The position numbers and the translations under genes are program-made. From an uncultured Gammaproteobacteria bacterium (lineage in GTDB: Bacteria; Patescibacteriota; Patescibacteriia; 2-12-FULL-60-25), in the NCBI GenBank assembly GCA_964349535.1, contig CAYGGQ010000001.1, positions 1-34,283 on the forward strand: DNA of 34,283 nt. The letters are read 5' to 3'. Shown here one piece after another: positions 6,079 through 29,081 of this stretch; within the stretch, counting starts at the first letter, position 1; every line of letters begins with the position of its first letter. The notes below the pieces were generated by a model, which was given only the letters and a program-made list of their open reading frames with translations, made no database searches and was not told where the DNA came from.

Positions 6079-6154
6079 GCCAGTTTAGCTCAGTTGGTAG
6101 AGCAATGCTTTCGTAAAGCAGAGGTCCCGGGTTCGAATCCCGGAACTGGCTCCA
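6079..6154 (+). tRNA. tRNA-Thr (anticodon CGT).
   Basis: Acceptor stem GCCAGTT/AACTGGC; D arm GCTC-AGTTGGTA-GAGC; anticodon loop TTCGTAA; T arm CCGGG-TTCGAAT-CCCGG; encoded CCA. There is one A.G mismatch at the top of the anticodon stem. Confidence 0.88.
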
Positions 6155-6155
6155 T

Positions 6156-6190
6156 CCCCCTTTCGCGAAAGCTTCGGGGGGTTTTTGTTT
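6156..6190 (+). terminator. GC-clamped hairpin plus T-run after tRNA-Thr. This is copy 1 of a repeated hairpin motif.
   Basis: Sequence CCCCCtttcgcgaaagcttcGGGGGG followed by TTTTTGTTT. Confidence 0.6.
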
Positions 6191-22683: not shown

Positions 22684-22701
22684 TCTAGCAATTTTCTTCA
22701 A

Positions 22702-23688
22702 TCATCTCTCGTCTTGAGAAGGATTTTGCGTTTTTGTTTGCAGCAATCGTTCCAACTCATAGGCATTCGCATGCCAGCAAAGACCTGAATAGGATGACAG
22801 ATTTTCTGGCGTTGCTCGTTTGAGCATCCGTCTTATCGTCTTCGATCGTAAAACGGTCGCGTGAGGTAAAAGTACGTATCCAAGAAAATCAACCCCTTGC
22901 TTCCACGTCTGTACCTTTACTTTGTTCGGATGCAATTCCATCTTCAATCTATTTTTAAGAAACACATCTACACGTTCTGCCAGATCAAATGCTTCAGATC
23001 GTGCCAACGTCAGAATCACAAAATCATCACAATAACGAACATAATGAATGGCTCGTAACTCATGCTTTACATAGCGATCCAACTCATGAAGATAGACATT
23101 GGCAAAAATCTGGCTTGTGAGATTACCAAGCGGAATGCCACGGCCGGGAAGGACGGAAAAACTCTCGATAATCCCCCGAAGCAAACGAACAACCTTCTCG
23201 TCTTTTACCCTCCGTCCCAACAAGGAAAGCAAAATCTCATGATCTACCGACGCAAAAAACTTCCTGACGTCGCACTTCAACGCATAGACCGTCCTCGTAT
23301 GATTCACGCTCGCCCGTCGGAGAAAAACTCCTAAGCGAGCTACAGCCACATGAGTGCCTTTTTCGAGCCGACATGAATAGCTGTCATAAATGAACCGCGA
23401 CTCAAAAAACGTCTCAATAACATTGACGATCGCTTGATGCACGACCCGATCCCTCACGGTCGCCTTATGTATACTGCGCTGCTTCGGATCAAAAATCGTA
23501 AATGGTTGGTAGGGGCCATGTCGGTATGTTTCTTCAAGGAGACTGTCCCATAAAGAAAAGATATTATCTTCAAGATGATATTCAAACTCCATCACATCCC
23601 CCTTCGATCGCTTGCCTTTGCAAAATCTGTGCCAAGCCTCAAATAAGTTTTCAAGAGAAACGATGCGGTAGAATAGGTCATTATTCAT
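22702..23688 (-). CDS. DGR-type reverse transcriptase.
   Basis: 328 aa. RT motifs are KQRSIHKATVRDRVVHQAIV, LKCDVRKFFASVDHEIL, the DGR-diagnostic IPLGNLTSQIFANVYLHELD ([ILV]GxxxSQ), and YVRYCDDFVIL (YxDD). RBS GGAGAGGT. Confidence 0.92.
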   Translation of the reverse strand: MNNDLFYRIVSLENLFEAWHRFCKGKRSKGDVMEFEYHLEDNIFSLWDSLLEETYRHGPYQPFTIFDPKQRSIHKATVRDRVVHQAIVNVIETFFESRFIYDSYSCRLEKGTHVAVARLGVFLRRASVNHTRTVYALKCDVRKFFASVDHEILLSLLGRRVKDEKVVRLLRGIIESFSVLPGRGIPLGNLTSQIFANVYLHELDRYVKHELRAIHYVRYCDDFVILTLARSEAFDLAERVDVFLKNRLKMELHPNKVKVQTWKQGVDFLGYVLLPHATVLRSKTIRRMLKRATPENLSSYSGLCWHANAYELERLLQTKTQNPSQDER

Positions 23689-23716
23689 TTTTACCTCTCC
23701 GAGAGGAGATTCCTCT

Positions 23717-24101
23717 ATGTTACCCCCCCCGCCACAATTTCAATCAAATCTCTCACAATCCAAGCGACATACCCATCATTCAGGCCATCTATGGTCTCTA
23801 CGCGTTCTGGAATGAAATCTTGCTGAAGTTCCCAAAAACCCAACGACATCTCCTTGGCCAAACCTGTGCCGAATACCTGCTTGATGTACTTGAAAAAACG
23901 CTGGCATCAGCACAAACGACACAGGTCACGGAAAAAATCCCCTACTTACAACACGCGAGTACAAAACTCGATACGCTCAAACTACTCACGCGCCTTACGA
24001 AGGACTGTAAGTGCATTTCAAACGCACAGTATTTGCAAATGGAGTCCAAGCTACAGGAAATAGGCAGGATGCTCGGCGGATGGATCAAGTCGCTTGGATA
24101 A
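23717..24101 (+). CDS. avd: Avd (accessory variability determinant; four-helix-bundle, 23S rRNA IVS protein family). The start requires a 1-nt correction in a C8 tract.
   Basis: In-frame part: PIIQAIYGLYAFWNEILLKFPKTQRHLLGQTCAEYLLDVLEKTL...CISNAQYLQMESKLQEIGRMLGGWIKSLG, the typical Avd C-terminus. The only SD-preceded ATG (GAGAGGAG-N8-ATG at 23717) is in the neighbouring frame. Removing one C from C8 (23723-23730) joins the two frames. The span is 385 nt, that is 3n+1. Confidence 0.75.
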
Positions 24102-24109
24102 AAAGCAAC

Positions 24110-24128
24110 CCCACCTGTGAAAGGTGGG
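24110..24128 (-). terminator. Hairpin between the avd stop and the TR 3' end. It looks like a terminator only on the minus (TR) strand.
   Basis: Minus strand reads CCCACCT-ttcac-AGGTGGG followed by GTTGCTTTTTA. On the plus strand the tail is ATCGTGATGGGG, with no T-run. Confidence 0.45.
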
Positions 24129-24142
24129 ATCGTGATGGGGAG

Positions 24143-24277
24143 TCCCGCAAGCGGGGCACCGAGTAGTTCGAGTTGTCATTGCTGCGGTCGTTGGCGTTGA
24201 CGTTCACCTGACGATTGTCACGGTTGAAGTTCACGATCACGACGTTCTGCCACGCCTCGTCGTCGTTCTCGGGGACG
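24143..24277 (-). repeat. DGR template repeat (TR).
   Basis: 135 bp aligning without gaps to 24687-24821 (offset 544). There are 119 identities. All 16 mismatches are T on the plus strand, which is A on the minus strand of this copy. In the target reading frame it carries 9 AAC and 2 AAT codons. Confidence 0.92.
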
Positions 24278-24614
24278 AGCTATATTACGTTTTCTCCTTC
24301 CATGACACCGAGCACAGGCGCACCCATGCCCTGTATTTTATGCGGGGTGCAACTACGTCAGTTTGATGACATAGCCCATCCCAAAAGAAAACGCGGAGTA
24401 CCCATCATTCGCGCCGCATCACCCTTCGCTCCTGCTGGAGCTACGGGTGACACCCCGAAGCTTTAGCGAAGGGGTGCGCTCTCGAACTCCGTAAAGATCG
24501 AGACTCTGACGGCATATGCGAGTAATAAGAGATTTCGGCGACCGGCATCCGTAAACGCCGATTCATGAGCCTACTTTCCATGCATAAGTATACCAGTTTT
24601 TGATAAAAAAATTA

Positions 24615-24660
24615 GGCGCTCAGGGAACCAAGGTCAGAAGACCAAGGTTCCCCAAGCGCC
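24615..24660 (-). terminator. Long interrupted hairpin 26 nt downstream of the VR. It could be the target-gene terminator and/or a DGR homing-associated hairpin.
   Basis: Minus strand reads GGCGCT-t-GGGAACC-tt-GGTC-ttct-GACC-tt-GGTTCCC-tg-AGCGCC followed by TAATTTTTTT. Confidence 0.6.
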
Positions 24661-24682
24661 AAGTGTTCAAGTTACAAGTGCC

Positions 24683-25540
24683 TTACTCCCGCAAGCGGGG
24701 CACCGAGTAGTACGAGTTGCCATCGCTGCGGCCGTGGGCGCTGACGCGCACCTGACGATTGTCACGGTCGAAGAGCACGATCACGACGCGCTGCCACGCC
24801 TCGTCGCCGTCCGCGGGGACGTTGACCTCGTAGCCAGCGGCGAACAAGCCGGGGAGCTTGTCGTAGTCGATGGCCTGGATCATATCCTTGAACAGCCATA
24901 CGATGACGAGCAGCTCGTCGGCGAGCGACTTGGAATCGCGCACCGCCGTGATGCTCTCGCGCTTCCGGTTGGTGTCGAGGTCGGCCACGATCCATTCGAC
25001 GACCGCGTGGTGCGTGTTGTTGCCGGAGAGCAGCCGCAGGCGCTCCACGGGCGTGCCCTCGTACTCGACCTTGCCCGAGTGGAGCAGGTTCCAGCGCCAG
25101 AAGCGACCTTCGCCGAAGACGTGCTGGAGGCGGGCATAGTGCGCTTCGAAGGTCTTGGCCACGCCCTCGTCCCCTTCGCCGAAGCGGATGCGGAACGAAC
25201 GGTAGGCGGACTTGCCTTTCGGCCACGCGGGAGCGGAGGAGGCGAGACGGACGAAGTCCTCCTCGGTCATTCCCCACTTTTCCTCGTCGTTCGCACGACG
25301 GAGAGCGGTGAGCTGTGCCTCGACGGTCATCTCATACGGGTTCTTCTCGGCGCGGGCGAGCTGCTCGTTGATGAACTGGATGAGCAAGCTCGCGTTCTCA
25401 CCCTCCTTGCCGCCGCGCATCCAATCGGTGTGTGCGGTCGTGCCGCCCGCCTTTTCGATGACACGGAGGGTGGAGTGAAGCAGGTCGTGCTCGATCTTCG
25501 TGATGGGGTTGGCCATTGGCGTCACCCGTTCCTTTCGCAT
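24683..25540 (-). CDS. DGR target (variable) protein with the VR at its C-terminus. No recognisable N-terminal domain.
   Basis: 285-aa ORF. An alternative start at ATG 25516 (MANPITK) has AAGGAA upstream. The last 45 codons are the VR. The TR AAC codons are in frame with this ORF, which fixes the coding strand. Confidence 0.85.
   Translation of the reverse strand: MRKERVTPMANPITKIEHDLLHSTLRVIEKAGGTTAHTDWMRGGKEGENASLLIQFINEQLARAEKNPYEMTVEAQLTALRRANDEEKWGMTEEDFVRLASSAPAWPKGKSAYRSFRIRFGEGDEGVAKTFEAHYARLQHVFGEGRFWRWNLLHSGKVEYEGTPVERLRLLSGNNTHHAVVEWIVADLDTNRKRESITAVRDSKSLADELLVIVWLFKDMIQAIDYDKLPGLFAAGYEVNVPADGDEAWQRVVIVLFDRDNRQVRVSAHGRSDGNSYYSVPRLRE
24687..24821 (-). repeat. DGR variable repeat (VR).
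   Basis: Counterpart of the TR. It encodes VPADGDEAWQRVVIVLFDRDNRQVRVSAHGRSDGNSYYSVPRLR, against the TR-encoded VPENDDEAWQNVVIVNFNRDNRQVNVNANDRSNDNSNYSVPRLR. Confidence 0.92.
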
Positions 25541-25676
25541 GCCGCAGACTGTCCAGACTCAGGATCATTCCCTAGTACGTGGAGTTGTCGTTTGTTGAAA
25601 GCGGCCTGTTAAAGCCCACAGAATGAGCTACAAAACGCCACTTTCAACAATAGGTTGCTATTTCAAAGAACATACA

Positions 25677-25705
25677 TTTATAGCATGTTTTCTGGGAAAA
25701 GTCAA
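25677..25705 (-). promoter_or_regulatory. Strong sigma-70-like promoter for the DGR target gene.
   Basis: Minus strand reads TTGACT (25705-25700), a 17-nt spacer, then TATAAA (25682-25677). It lies about 130 nt upstream of ATG 25540. Confidence 0.5.
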
Positions 25706-25853
25706 GCGCAGTACCTGTGCTTTTGCCTTATTTAGCCGGATTTATTGTAATAAACCAACTTTATCCAACAGAACCTATCTTACCACCCCCTCTTCCGCTG
25801 TCATGCTGTCTTATATATGTAATTCGTGCTAAATTTTCTGACGCTTACTGCTT

Positions 25854-26856: not shown

Positions 26857-27621
26857 GTGGCAAAACGACCCATCTTGAAAAATAATTATGCGGGGCGGCT
26901 TGAGAACATCAAAATGCGCCCCTTTTTCCACCGAGGCGAGCTCTATACCTGCCTCATGCATGATATGCTCGCGGATCCCGCGATCTATCCCGATCATCTC
27001 TATCTTCTTTTGCAGATGGTGCATAGCGTGGAAAACCCAGAGCACCAACGCTTTTGCCGATTTGCGATTCTGGATACGTTGCTCTCAAAAACACCTCCTG
27101 CTCTGGATCAATCAAGATTCATGGCACAGGCTTTGGCGCATAAACCAGAGGATCGCGTGCGTTCCTTTCTCTGGATTTATGCCACGTCTCACTCTCCGAT
27201 GGATCTGGCACGCGCCCGCCTTTCTGCGAAGCTGCTTGTTGCGAATAATCAATGGGAGCTCGCCGCCATTGCCTTCGTGCATATCGGCTCGATCACCTTT
27301 GATCCCGCAGACTATATCGTCGCCCGATCCCAGGCACAGAAAATACCCTCCTCTCAAGCGCAAACTACCATCCTTTCTGATTTGGCCGTCGTCTCCTGTG
27401 CTCTGGAGGACTTTCTTATCGTGATGAGCGCGAGTGAACATACGCGCGATGAAACCATCATCTTGCATCTGATGAACTTTTTGGAAAAAAGAAGACTCCT
27501 TGGCCTGGCGGCAGAGCTCACGATACAGCTCCCTCCATCCCAAGTACGGACCAAGCAGCATCTGCTAGAACTTTGTCAGCGCTTGCGCGCCGCAAAACGC
27601 CAGCCCCCTTCCTGCCTCTAA
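26857..27621 (+). CDS. Hypothetical protein (predicted helical).
   Basis: ORF 26761..27621. GTG 26857 is preferred because AGGAGG lies 4 nt upstream and it avoids overlap with fmt. The start is uncertain. Confidence 0.5.
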   Translation: MAKRPILKNNYAGRLENIKMRPFFHRGELYTCLMHDMLADPAIYPDHLYLLLQMVHSVENPEHQRFCRFAILDTLLSKTPPALDQSRFMAQALAHKPEDRVRSFLWIYATSHSPMDLARARLSAKLLVANNQWELAAIAFVHIGSITFDPADYIVARSQAQKIPSSQAQTTILSDLAVVSCALEDFLIVMSASEHTRDETIILHLMNFLEKRRLLGLAAELTIQLPPSQVRTKQHLLELCQRLRAAKRQPPSCL

Positions 27622-29081
27622 CCCCCCTTCGCTAAAGCTTCGGGGGGTCTTTGATATAAAAGTAAACACATCTCCCCTAACACGATCAAGAGAATCCCAA
27701 GAGGGTGGTTGATGTAGGGGGTAAAAATATGAATGACAGCCAAGCTCACCACGCTTGTCACAATCGCGACCTTCATCCACTCGGGCAGTTGACTCAACCA
27801 TACTCGACGCAGCAAACTCCCTAACAGACCACACAGGAGCAAAACACCAAAGACGCCAAATTTGATCCATTGATCTAGCCACCCCCACTCAAACGCATAC
27901 GTCGTGACCTTGCCACCCGTCATTTGCACTGCCCTCGGATCTTGACTCTGATAAGTCACGGTTGCTCCAAAACCAGATCCGCGCAGAGGGTGCTCCTGTA
28001 TTTTTTGCCAAAGAACTGGTAGCAACTGCCATCGGCTCACTCCAGCCGCCTCATTTGTCTGCACACGTCCCGCAAACATCTGCCACAAGGCGGCGGGCTG
28101 GATCGCAGGCCAAGGAAAAAGAACAGTCGCAATTACCAAGCAAACTCCCAAGCCACTTCCTCCTAAAAGAATTTTTATATTTTGAACAGGTGGCCACGTC
28201 TTGCGTCGTAAAAGATTGATACCTAAAAAAAGGAGCCCCGCGGCAAGCCCTATCCAAAAACTACGTGACAGACTTGCGATCACCTCCGCAAAAGAAAGAA
28301 CGAACAATCCCTTTGCCCATCGGGGTAGCCGTTGGTCACGACTAAAACTAAGCCACGCGATCACGGCGATCACAACGGGAATCGCATAAATTTGAGATTG
28401 CAAAAAAATGCGATACGCCCCCTCCCCCATGGCGGTGATCTCTCCAACCCCCGTTCGTCGAATCCAAAGATACACCGGGCCACCAACGGAAAACCAACCA
28501 TGGGAAAAATCGTAGAGCAGCTCGAGCGTTTTCATGGGCAACCAAAACAACCCGACTAAAATCGCAGGATAAAGAACCTGTTTCAGTTTTTCGCGTCGAT
28601 TTTGCGCCAAATCCAATGCGGGTAACAGCAACACCCAAACAACCCAGGCATTTGCATCAGCCCACAAAAATACATTTCCATTCCACCAACCGATCAATAT
28701 CGCATGTATAACCCCGACCGCGAGCCAAAAATAGATCCGCCGTCCCTTGAGGTGTGTGGGCCATGTCTTCCATGTTTTGAAACGCAACGACCAGATCAAC
28801 CAACCCAGTATAAACGCGACGAACATCAACACGCGAAGGGAGTGACCACCATCCGCTTGTGCATCCGCTCCAAGTTTAAAAAACGCACCTTTCGATCCAA
28901 CTAAAAATTCCAGAATCAGCGCGCTCAACGCCACTTCTGGACGAACGATGGAGACTCCGAACATAAGCAGAGCGACCGTCACCGCCAAAACACTGCTGAT
29001 CATCGGGTCAAAGACTGTGACCATCGAAAGACTTTCGACCACTAAAAGAACGATTGCCCAATAAAAAATTTGTCGTTTCAT
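27618..29081 (-). CDS. O-antigen ligase / Wzy_C family membrane protein.
   Basis: ORF 27618..29216 trimmed to ATG 29081 (MKRQIFYWAIVLLVV...), because the first 45 codons are read from a palindromic repeat. Polytopic, with FAEVIASLSRSFWIGLAAGLLFLG. Confidence 0.65.
   Translation of the reverse strand: MKRQIFYWAIVLLVVESLSMVTVFDPMISSVLAVTVALLMFGVSIVRPEVALSALILEFLVGSKGAFFKLGADAQADGGHSLRVLMFVAFILGWLIWSLRFKTWKTWPTHLKGRRIYFWLAVGVIHAILIGWWNGNVFLWADANAWVVWVLLLPALDLAQNRREKLKQVLYPAILVGLFWLPMKTLELLYDFSHGWFSVGGPVYLWIRRTGVGEITAMGEGAYRIFLQSQIYAIPVVIAVIAWLSFSRDQRLPRWAKGLFVLSFAEVIASLSRSFWIGLAAGLLFLGINLLRRKTWPPVQNIKILLGGSGLGVCLVIATVLFPWPAIQPAALWQMFAGRVQTNEAAGVSRWQLLPVLWQKIQEHPLRGSGFGATVTYQSQDPRAVQMTGGKVTTYAFEWGWLDQWIKFGVFGVLLLCGLLGSLLRRVWLSQLPEWMKVAIVTSVVSLAVIHIFTPYINHPLGILLIVLGEMCLLLYQRPPEALAKGG
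27622..27647. repeat. GC-clamped hairpin, copy 2 of the repeated motif. It sits at the convergent gene ends.
   Basis: Sequence CCCCCCttcgctaaagcttcGGGGGG. The flank GTCTTTGATATAAAA resembles the copy 1 flank GTTTTTGTTTATATAAA. Confidence 0.55.

Follow-up and report, generated by a model that had tools for sequence, protein, structure and literature searches.

A chromosomal diversity-generating retroelement (DGR) of the type found in bacteria of the candidate phyla radiation (CPR; Patescibacteria) was identified with high confidence in a 34,283-nt stretch of contig CAYGGQ010000001.1 (assembly GCA_964349535.1, forward strand). This whole stretch is referred to as the window, and all coordinates are window positions. 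The element contains a template repeat (TR), a gene encoding a reverse transcriptase (RT), the gene avd (accessory variability determinant) and a target gene that encodes a variable protein and ends in the variable repeat (VR) (Table 1). The TR and VR are direct copies 544 nt apart, no other copy of the repeat is present within the window, and the homology ends sharply at both borders. The initial annotation of this DNA had claimed 119 identities in 135 positions for the ungapped alignment of 24143-24277 with 24687-24821. Re-alignment reproduced this figure, and the positions of the 16 mismatches and the 13 amino-acid changes from TR to VR agreed with those listed there. At all 16 mismatches the TR has a plus-strand T, corresponding to an A on the coding (minus) strand. 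The minus strand of the TR has 35 adenines, as counted earlier, 16 of which are substituted in the VR, and none of the 100 non-adenine positions differs. The probability that 16 of 16 mismatches fall by chance on the 35 adenines of 135 nt is 1.8e-11 (hypergeometric test).

The substitutions from TR to VR comprise nine A>G, five A>C and two A>T changes, and none of the differences is a synonymous third-position change. In the reading frame of the target, 13 of the TR adenines occupy codon position 1, 22 occupy position 2 and none occupies position 3. The TR is indeed rich in AAC codons, with 11 of its 44 codons being AAY (9 AAC and 2 AAT). Because the adenines are confined to the first two codon positions, mostly within AAY codons, the target can be recoded at about 23 residues without stop codons. 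The complete lack of mismatches at the 100 non-adenine positions argues for a recent last homing event.

Relatives of the target gene were found at 61 genomic loci, about 20 of which show the order target-TR-(avd)-RT. A TR/VR pair of 127-142 nt was found in 17 related cassettes, and 265 of their 271 mismatches fall on TR adenines. The adenine signature belongs to the whole lineage, and the earlier claim that mutagenic retrohoming has acted on this locus is therefore supported by its recurrence in relatives, in addition to the adenine-only mismatches and the full set of DGR components in the window. Among the metagenome loci found with an RT profile, avd lies directly upstream of the RT gene on the opposite strand in 67 of 70 evaluable cases.

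The best match of the RT in the PDB is 8ub7_A, an RT of 328 aa (E = 2.3e-46), compared with 1.2e-23 for the best group II intron RT. The entry 8ub7 is itself named just "Reverse transcriptase", and we take it to be the DGR enzyme of a Bordetella phage (bRT). Residue R71 of the RT aligns with R74 of 8ub7_A. The enzyme carries the motifs GIPLGNLTSQ and YCDD, the former of the DGR type [I/L/V]GxxxSQ, which replaces the QGxxxSP of group II intron RTs and was used as the criterion for the DGR clade. By motif and best structure match, the RT is assigned to the DGR type. The product of avd matches PF22296 (bAvd; 1.8e-14, 54.6 bits, cut-off 40) and phrog_3206 ("Avd protein of DGR", 9e-18). No assignment to a defence system could be made, as PADLOC returned only generic RT models for the RT and no match for the target.

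A poly-C tract lies at the 5' end of avd. A tract of C7-C12 is present in the window and in 13 related cassettes (L005, L008, L011, L020, L023, L026-L028, L030, L032, L033, L035 and L038), and the upstream ATG is out of frame in all 14. Tracts of at least six C were also found in 38 of 67 more distant cassettes (loci within L062-L141), with the longest reported, C26, in L063. The upstream ATG of these distant tract-bearing cassettes is in frame in only 7 of the 33 that have one, whereas a plain in-frame ATG is present in 26 of 29 distant cassettes without a tract. Pooling of the tract-bearing cassettes gives 40 of 47 in which avd and the upstream ATG are in different frames. The peptide encoded past the C-tract in the avd frame is moderately conserved. 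Tract-length polymorphism between assemblies of the same strain was also sought, and the RT of the window is encoded by no other contig. Possible roles of the tract are slipped-strand phase variation, transcriptional or ribosomal slippage on the C-run, and that of a promoter spacer. The tract may be a phase-variable or recoding switch on Avd. No description of a poly-C tract in avd was found in the literature consulted.

Several points weigh against the assignment of the locus to a CPR-type DGR. The window is one consensus sequence, and the support for current activity, with adenine-mutagenised cDNA synthesis and VR replacement in vivo, is indirect, from the absence of non-adenine mismatches. 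The RT scores below every NCBIfam cut-off, with no DGR-specific RT model among its NCBIfam matches, and the Avd model NF033474 (DivGenRetAVD) matches with 2.8e-21 and 75.8 bits, slightly below its cut-off of 80. No promoter for the TR RNA was identified in the window, and the site of priming is inferred, as are the functions discussed below for the RNA domain 5' of the TR and for the CTTG repeats behind the VR. Downstream of the RT gene, avd has no in-frame ATG, GTG or TTG, and the only ATG nearby is out of frame behind the C8 tract, so that Avd may not be made from this allele.

The avd start region is also the ground for the strongest rival explanation, according to which a true DGR has here become switched off or is in decay, its TR/VR pattern recording past homing and its allele no longer making Avd. 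The absence of an in-frame start codon and the out-of-frame position of the sole ATG with a Shine-Dalgarno sequence speak for such a state. However, the RT open reading frame is intact and retains its catalytic motifs, the non-adenine positions of the repeats are unchanged, and all RNA elements are intact, the window being the top scorer with the covariance model described below. The out-of-frame layout is, moreover, the usual one among the pooled tract-bearing cassettes, and it coexists with clean adenine-only mismatches among the 18 close cassettes. Because this layout is widespread alongside such clean mismatches, a regulated or recoded state of avd looks likelier than decay, and a switched-off or decaying element is considered improbable.

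The remaining two explanations concern the repeats themselves. Adenine-specific chemistry without reverse transcription, such as deamination or editing of the VR DNA or RNA, would account for A>G as the commonest change (9 of 16), but the other seven are A>C or A>T changes, which are not products of deamination; the changes are also confined to the repeat, stopping exactly at its borders, and the unchanged copy is non-coding and lies beside the RT/Avd pair, which leaves this explanation scarcely credible. An ordinary duplicated gene fragment, that is, a partial paralog or pseudogene of the 3' end of the target that diverged by random point mutation, finds in the two neighbouring direct copies the minimum expected of a local duplication, but it is already refuted by the concentration of all differences on one base, one strand and one copy, as well as by the lack of synonymous third-position changes, the same pattern in 17 independent cassettes and the adjacent RT and Avd genes, and its probability is negligible.

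Table 1. Positions of the features of the DGR cassette within the window
Feature	Position	Strand	Description
Whole DGR cassette	22684-25853	-	3170 nt inserted between def (stop codon) and fmt (start codon)
DGR reverse transcriptase	22702-23688	-	328 aa; RVT_1 1.4e-22; phrog_1423 6.6e-107
Out-of-frame ATG (23717-23719) and C8 tract (23723-23730)	23717-23730	+	5' end of avd; AGGAG 8 nt upstream
avd (accessory variability determinant)	23787-24101 (domain)	+	Strand opposite to RT, TR and target
Stem-loop and T-run	24106-24132	-	11 nt 3' of TR; terminator-like site
3' strand of long-range helix H0	24133-24145	-	Last 3 nt of TR and next 10 nt (GGGACTCCCCATCA)
Template repeat (TR)	24143-24277	-	135 nt; 35 adenines
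Structured RNA domain	24278-24422	-	Directly 5' of TR; helices H1-H3; 5' strand of H0 at 24395-24407
VR 3' flank	24598-24682	-	Four CTTG motifs (24679-24651, about 8-nt spacing), hairpin 24660-24615, T7 24611-24605
Target (variable protein) gene	24683-25540	-	285 aa; GC 0.64; last 44 codons = VR
Variable repeat (VR)	24687-24821	-	Encodes target residues 241-284

A structured RNA domain was identified directly 5' of the TR. The stretch of about 150 nt upstream of the TR is kept in 18 of 18 cassettes, with invariant blocks and three helices (H1-H3), and its loops include invariant ones such as CGCATAAAAT.CAGG. The H1-H3 pairing is formed in 96.8% of alignment cells, compared with 78.7% in shuffles and 36-62% when the partners were slid, and compensatory changes occur in 17 of the 22 pairs of the domain. 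A covariance model built from the 18 cassettes gave its top score, 140.5 bits, for the window and detected 19 further cassettes among 80 RT-anchored metagenome loci. The matches always lie on the RT strand, just before the inverted avd. Thirteen of these 19 further cassettes have no homolog of the target family of the window. In 17 of the 19, a TR lies directly behind the element and has its second copy at another place in the locus, the mismatches being almost only at adenines; the VR lies on the opposite strand in three of these 17. The Rfam 15 search around the cassette gave no match even at E<=1, and at gathering thresholds Rfam found only two tRNAs over the window. No description of a structured RNA domain 5' of the TR in this lineage was found in the literature consulted.

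A long-range helix, H0, pairs 24395-24407, at the 5' edge of the domain and about 120-130 nt before the TR, with 24133-24145. In alignment A8 (12 pairs), 87.7% of the cells are paired, against 34-54% in slid controls. Compensatory changes were found at 6 of the 12 pairs, and the four central pairs are formed in 19 of 19 sequences. The TR is followed by a stem-loop and a T-run. A strong hairpin is present at the same spot in nearly all of the 17 related cassettes, with stems that differ in sequence, and it lies 10-20 nt past nearly every TR; the evidence for this 3' hairpin is per-sequence folding only. Six further cassettes show self-complementary matches about 130 nt after the RNA element. 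The stem-loop 24106-24132 is a candidate site of Avd binding and the candidate 3' terminus of the TR RNA.

The VR is followed by its own conserved flank, which contains CTTG repeats, a hairpin and a T-run. The hairpin is 46 nt long, starts 26 nt behind the VR and has arms whose core is CTTGG...CCTTGG; in its inner stem, 6 of the 7 pairs carry compensatory changes. This flank is present in 18 of 18 cassettes and at about 17 target loci that have no nearby RT. A CTTG(G/A)/hairpin flank also follows the VRs of unrelated target families (L066, L108, L115, L123, L133, L134, L137, L138 and L140). The flank of the TR differs completely from that of the VR and lacks the CTTG/hairpin element. By analogy with the initiation of mutagenic homing (IMH) site and cruciform of BPP-1, the flank is a plausible target-site or recognition signal of the lineage, and it probably also terminates the target transcript. 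No description of a CTTG-repeat VR flank was found in the literature consulted.

At about 40 of the 61 loci that encode a target homolog, RT, avd and TR are all absent within 5 kb. Many of these RT-less loci keep the CTTG-repeat/hairpin flank, and others have an ordinary terminator. Several genomes encode more than one target paralog; for example, L005, L007 and L009 belong to one genome, and L045 has two tandem copies. Targeting of the RT-less genes in trans was considered and is not shown, as the TR of L005 differs from the VRs of L007 and L009, in the same genome, at 7-13 non-adenine positions.

The target protein belongs to a family that has no match in Pfam, NCBIfam, PHROGs or PADLOC. A profile of 101 homologs had no match among PDB sequences at E<=10, and Pfam gave no informative domain on long or divergent members of the family. 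A total of 162 relatives were found in a collection of 5.8 billion proteins, all of them unnamed or "hypothetical", and those with source names come from Patescibacteria, mostly Candidatus Uhrbacteria. An exhaustive profile search identified 297 target clusters at 50% identity among 1.84 billion, almost all with lengths of 220-330 aa. The C-terminus of the 101 homologs consists of a fixed scaffold, PGLFAAGYEVNVPE..W..VV.V.F.R..R.V.V.A..R...S.YSVP.LRE, that is broken by hypervariable positions. The columns of the 23 codons with an adenine in the TR of the window have an entropy of 2.63 bits, against 1.12 for the other 21 (Mann-Whitney P = 8e-7). Hydropathy revealed no transmembrane or signal-like segment, and the target appears to be cytoplasmic.

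An AlphaFold2 model of the target, built with the 101-sequence alignment, had a predicted local distance difference test (pLDDT) score of 94.4 and a predicted template modelling (pTM) score of 0.86. In the model, a helical part at the N-terminus precedes an alpha/beta domain, and the VR forms a beta-hairpin (residues 251-270) and the C-terminal tail. Foldseek searches with the full model against the PDB and viral predicted structures found nothing at E<=0.001 (best PDB match E = 0.57, template modelling (TM) score <=0.14), and a model of the C-terminal domain (pLDDT 93.4) likewise had no match at E<=0.001. The sub-threshold matches of the domain with the highest TM scores are animal C-type lectin domains (5b1w, 0.33; 3vyj, 0.38). 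No DGR variable protein, judged by entry description, is among the top 50 Foldseek matches. In these models a C-type lectin fold is not detectable in the target scaffold, and a very divergent C-type-lectin-like topology is possible. Two other candidates were rejected. HIV gp41 constructs in the PDB matched residues 30-72 (E about 7e-5), which was taken to reflect helical or coiled-coil composition because the profile search finds nothing. The Foldseek matches to RelE/HigB toxins, with a probability <=0.06 and a TM score <=0.29, have no meaning.

On the minus strand, the order of the cassette is the target gene with its C-terminal VR, the hairpin/T7 element, a non-coding stretch of about 400 nt, the TR, the stem-loop, the inverted avd and the RT gene. 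Only avd is encoded on the plus strand, and all remaining parts of the cassette lie on the minus strand. The cassette is inserted between def and fmt. In two relatives, L144 (3522-4933) and L146 (3359-4918), def and fmt are direct neighbours within the same LigB-PriA-Def-Fmt(-Wzy) order, which represents the empty site. Both the C-terminus of Def and the N-terminus of Fmt are intact around the cassette in the window, and the orientation of the cassette is reversed relative to the LigB-PriA-Def-Fmt-Wzy gene order. Neighbours of the LigB-PriA-Def-Fmt type were found in none of 141 related cassettes. A search of the cassette borders for terminal repeats or a target-site duplication gave only a 9-nt match, which is at chance level. 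A GC mosaic is evident, with values of 0.64 for the target, 0.59 for the TR, 0.47 for avd and 0.45 for the RT gene, and 0.51 for the window.

The best relatives of the neighbouring Fmt are exclusively from Patescibacteria/Ca. Uhrbacteria, with identities of <=64%, and because of this the host is assigned by sequence to a Patescibacterium. No phage genes were found near the cassette in a Pfam scan of the window. Since the cassette is inserted in the conserved LigB-PriA-Def-Fmt operon and no phage genes lie nearby, the element is classed as cell-encoded and chromosomal, not viral. Many of the contigs with such a Patescibacteria-type cassette bear titles that name "uncultured Gammaproteobacteria", Bacteroidetes, Ignavibacteriae or Lentisphaerae (L001, L002, L004, L006, L015, L024, L029 and others); such titles are probably those of mislabelled or mis-binned metagenome-assembled genomes. 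A hairpin-like motif, CCCC(C)TTCGC[TG]AAAGCTTCGGGG(G), is present in three copies in the window: 6146-6187 (+), 27612-27653 (+) and 24451-24476 (-). Of these copies, one follows a tRNA, one separates convergent genes and one lies in the spacer from VR to TR, and the motif is also present in the def-fmt spacer of L146. It looks like a repetitive extragenic palindromic (REP) or terminator-type element of these genomes.

DGRs are known to be abundant in CPR bacteria and have been described in two surveys. The architecture B3, "TR-(avd)-RT" with avd reversed, accounts for 90% of CPR DGRs (Wu et al. 2018, PMC5758913), and the DGRs of Patescibacteria form the cell-encoded clade 2 (Roux et al. 2021, PMC8144416). 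In the targets of clade 2, no domain, transmembrane or other, can usually be recognised, and their status as real non-membrane proteins was posed as an open question (PMC8144416). The universality of C-type lectin folds under VRs was likewise posed as open, with unrecognised variants expected in CPR (Roux et al. 2021, PMC8144416). The cassette of the window shares with Wu's B3 and Roux's clade 2 the order target, TR, inverted avd and RT, the chromosomal location and the Patescibacterium host. It also shares a target without a transmembrane or recognisable domain, a C-terminal VR, adenine-specific mutagenesis and adenines at codon positions 1 and 2. No group-defining feature differs. The cassette is a further instance of the known CPR DGR type, and the TR/VR finding confirms what is expected of it.

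In the ribonucleoprotein (RNP) of Bordetella phage BPP-1, the Sp RNA, located 3' of the TR, pairs both with the TR and with an upstream segment in neighbouring duplexes, with an Avd-binding stem-loop beside them (Handa et al. 2024, 10.1101/2023.10.23.563531). Stem-loops and upstream/downstream duplexes were predicted in 207 of 278 DGRs, including those of CPR, using only 40 nt upstream of the TR (10.1101/2023.10.23.563531). The BPP-1 DGR (mtd-avd-TR-brt) and the cassette of the window both have a homologous RT with LGxxxSQ, Avd, a TR of about 135 nt and adenine mutagenesis, a VR at the C-terminus with a hairpin behind it, a stem-loop immediately 3' of the TR and a duplex of sequences from either side of the TR. 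The stem-loop and the long-range helix thus have known counterparts, because both were described or predicted by Handa et al. (2024). The large structured RNA of BPP-1, however, is the Sp of about 140 nt 3' of the TR, whereas here it lies 5' of the TR, and it is the upstream strand, not Sp, that pairs with both the 3' end of the TR and the downstream segment. This arrangement, in which most of the structured RNA precedes the TR and an upstream strand pairs with the TR 3' end and the downstream segment, appears to be new. The VR is flanked by CTTG repeats in the window and by the IMH in BPP-1. The target of BPP-1 is a phage tail fibre, whereas that of the window is neither a tail fibre nor a protein with a detectable C-type lectin fold.

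RT-10 and other "RT" RNA motifs (Weinberg et al. 2017, PMC5737381) are likewise structured non-coding RNAs beside bacterial RT genes. RT-10, however, sits in the BPP-1 DGR 3' of the TR, whereas the element of the window lies 5' of the TR and, as stated above, matches no family of Rfam 15. The target shares with the C-type-lectin DGR proteins Mtd, TvpA, AvpA and TaqVP a C-terminal VR and the alternation of variable and conserved residues on beta strands. The order of its secondary-structure elements (beta, alpha, ..., alpha, 4 beta) is compatible with a C-type-lectin-like topology. Unlike those proteins, it has no Pfam FGE-sulfatase or DUF1566 match, and their VR end motif is absent from it, the VR ending in YSVPRLRE.

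A mechanism can be outlined whose steps are modelled on the Bordetella phage paradigm. The minus strand would be transcribed into a TR RNA composed of the structured 5' domain of about 150 nt, the TR and the 3' stem-loop. Helix H0 would close the TR into a loop and bring its 3' end beside the structured domain. A complex of RT and Avd would bind the TR RNA, prime on it and copy the TR to cDNA, misincorporating nucleotides opposite adenines; we infer that the 5' domain recruits this complex and supplies the priming nucleotide. The cDNA would then replace the VR, guided by TR/VR homology and probably also by the VR-specific 3' flank. As a result, about 23 residues on the beta-hairpin and the C-terminal tail of the target would be recoded.

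A more specific joint proposal can be made for the cassette. In this proposal a 5' RNA clamped to the 3' end of the TR would recruit RT-Avd in a permuted version of the BPP-1 layout, the poly-C tract would gate Avd and so switch diversification on and off in the population, and the target would be a cytoplasmic protein without a C-type lectin fold. Taken as a whole, this combination is tentative and rather unlikely to hold.

The assignment of the locus to the CPR type of DGR provides a clean and complete example for the open questions of the fold that carries the VR, the assembly of the RNP and the control of homing. Through the empty sites of relatives, the cassette is delimited as a discrete unit of 3.2 kb, which is of use for reconstitution. 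The target family is compact and confidently predicted, which suits tests of the universality of C-type lectin folds and of the non-membrane status of CPR targets. The 5' domain and the long-range helix offer a concrete, mutable model for RNP assembly in systems whose avd is inverted and whose TR and RT are not separated by a long spacer. The poly-C tract, in turn, bears on how mutagenic homing is kept in check.

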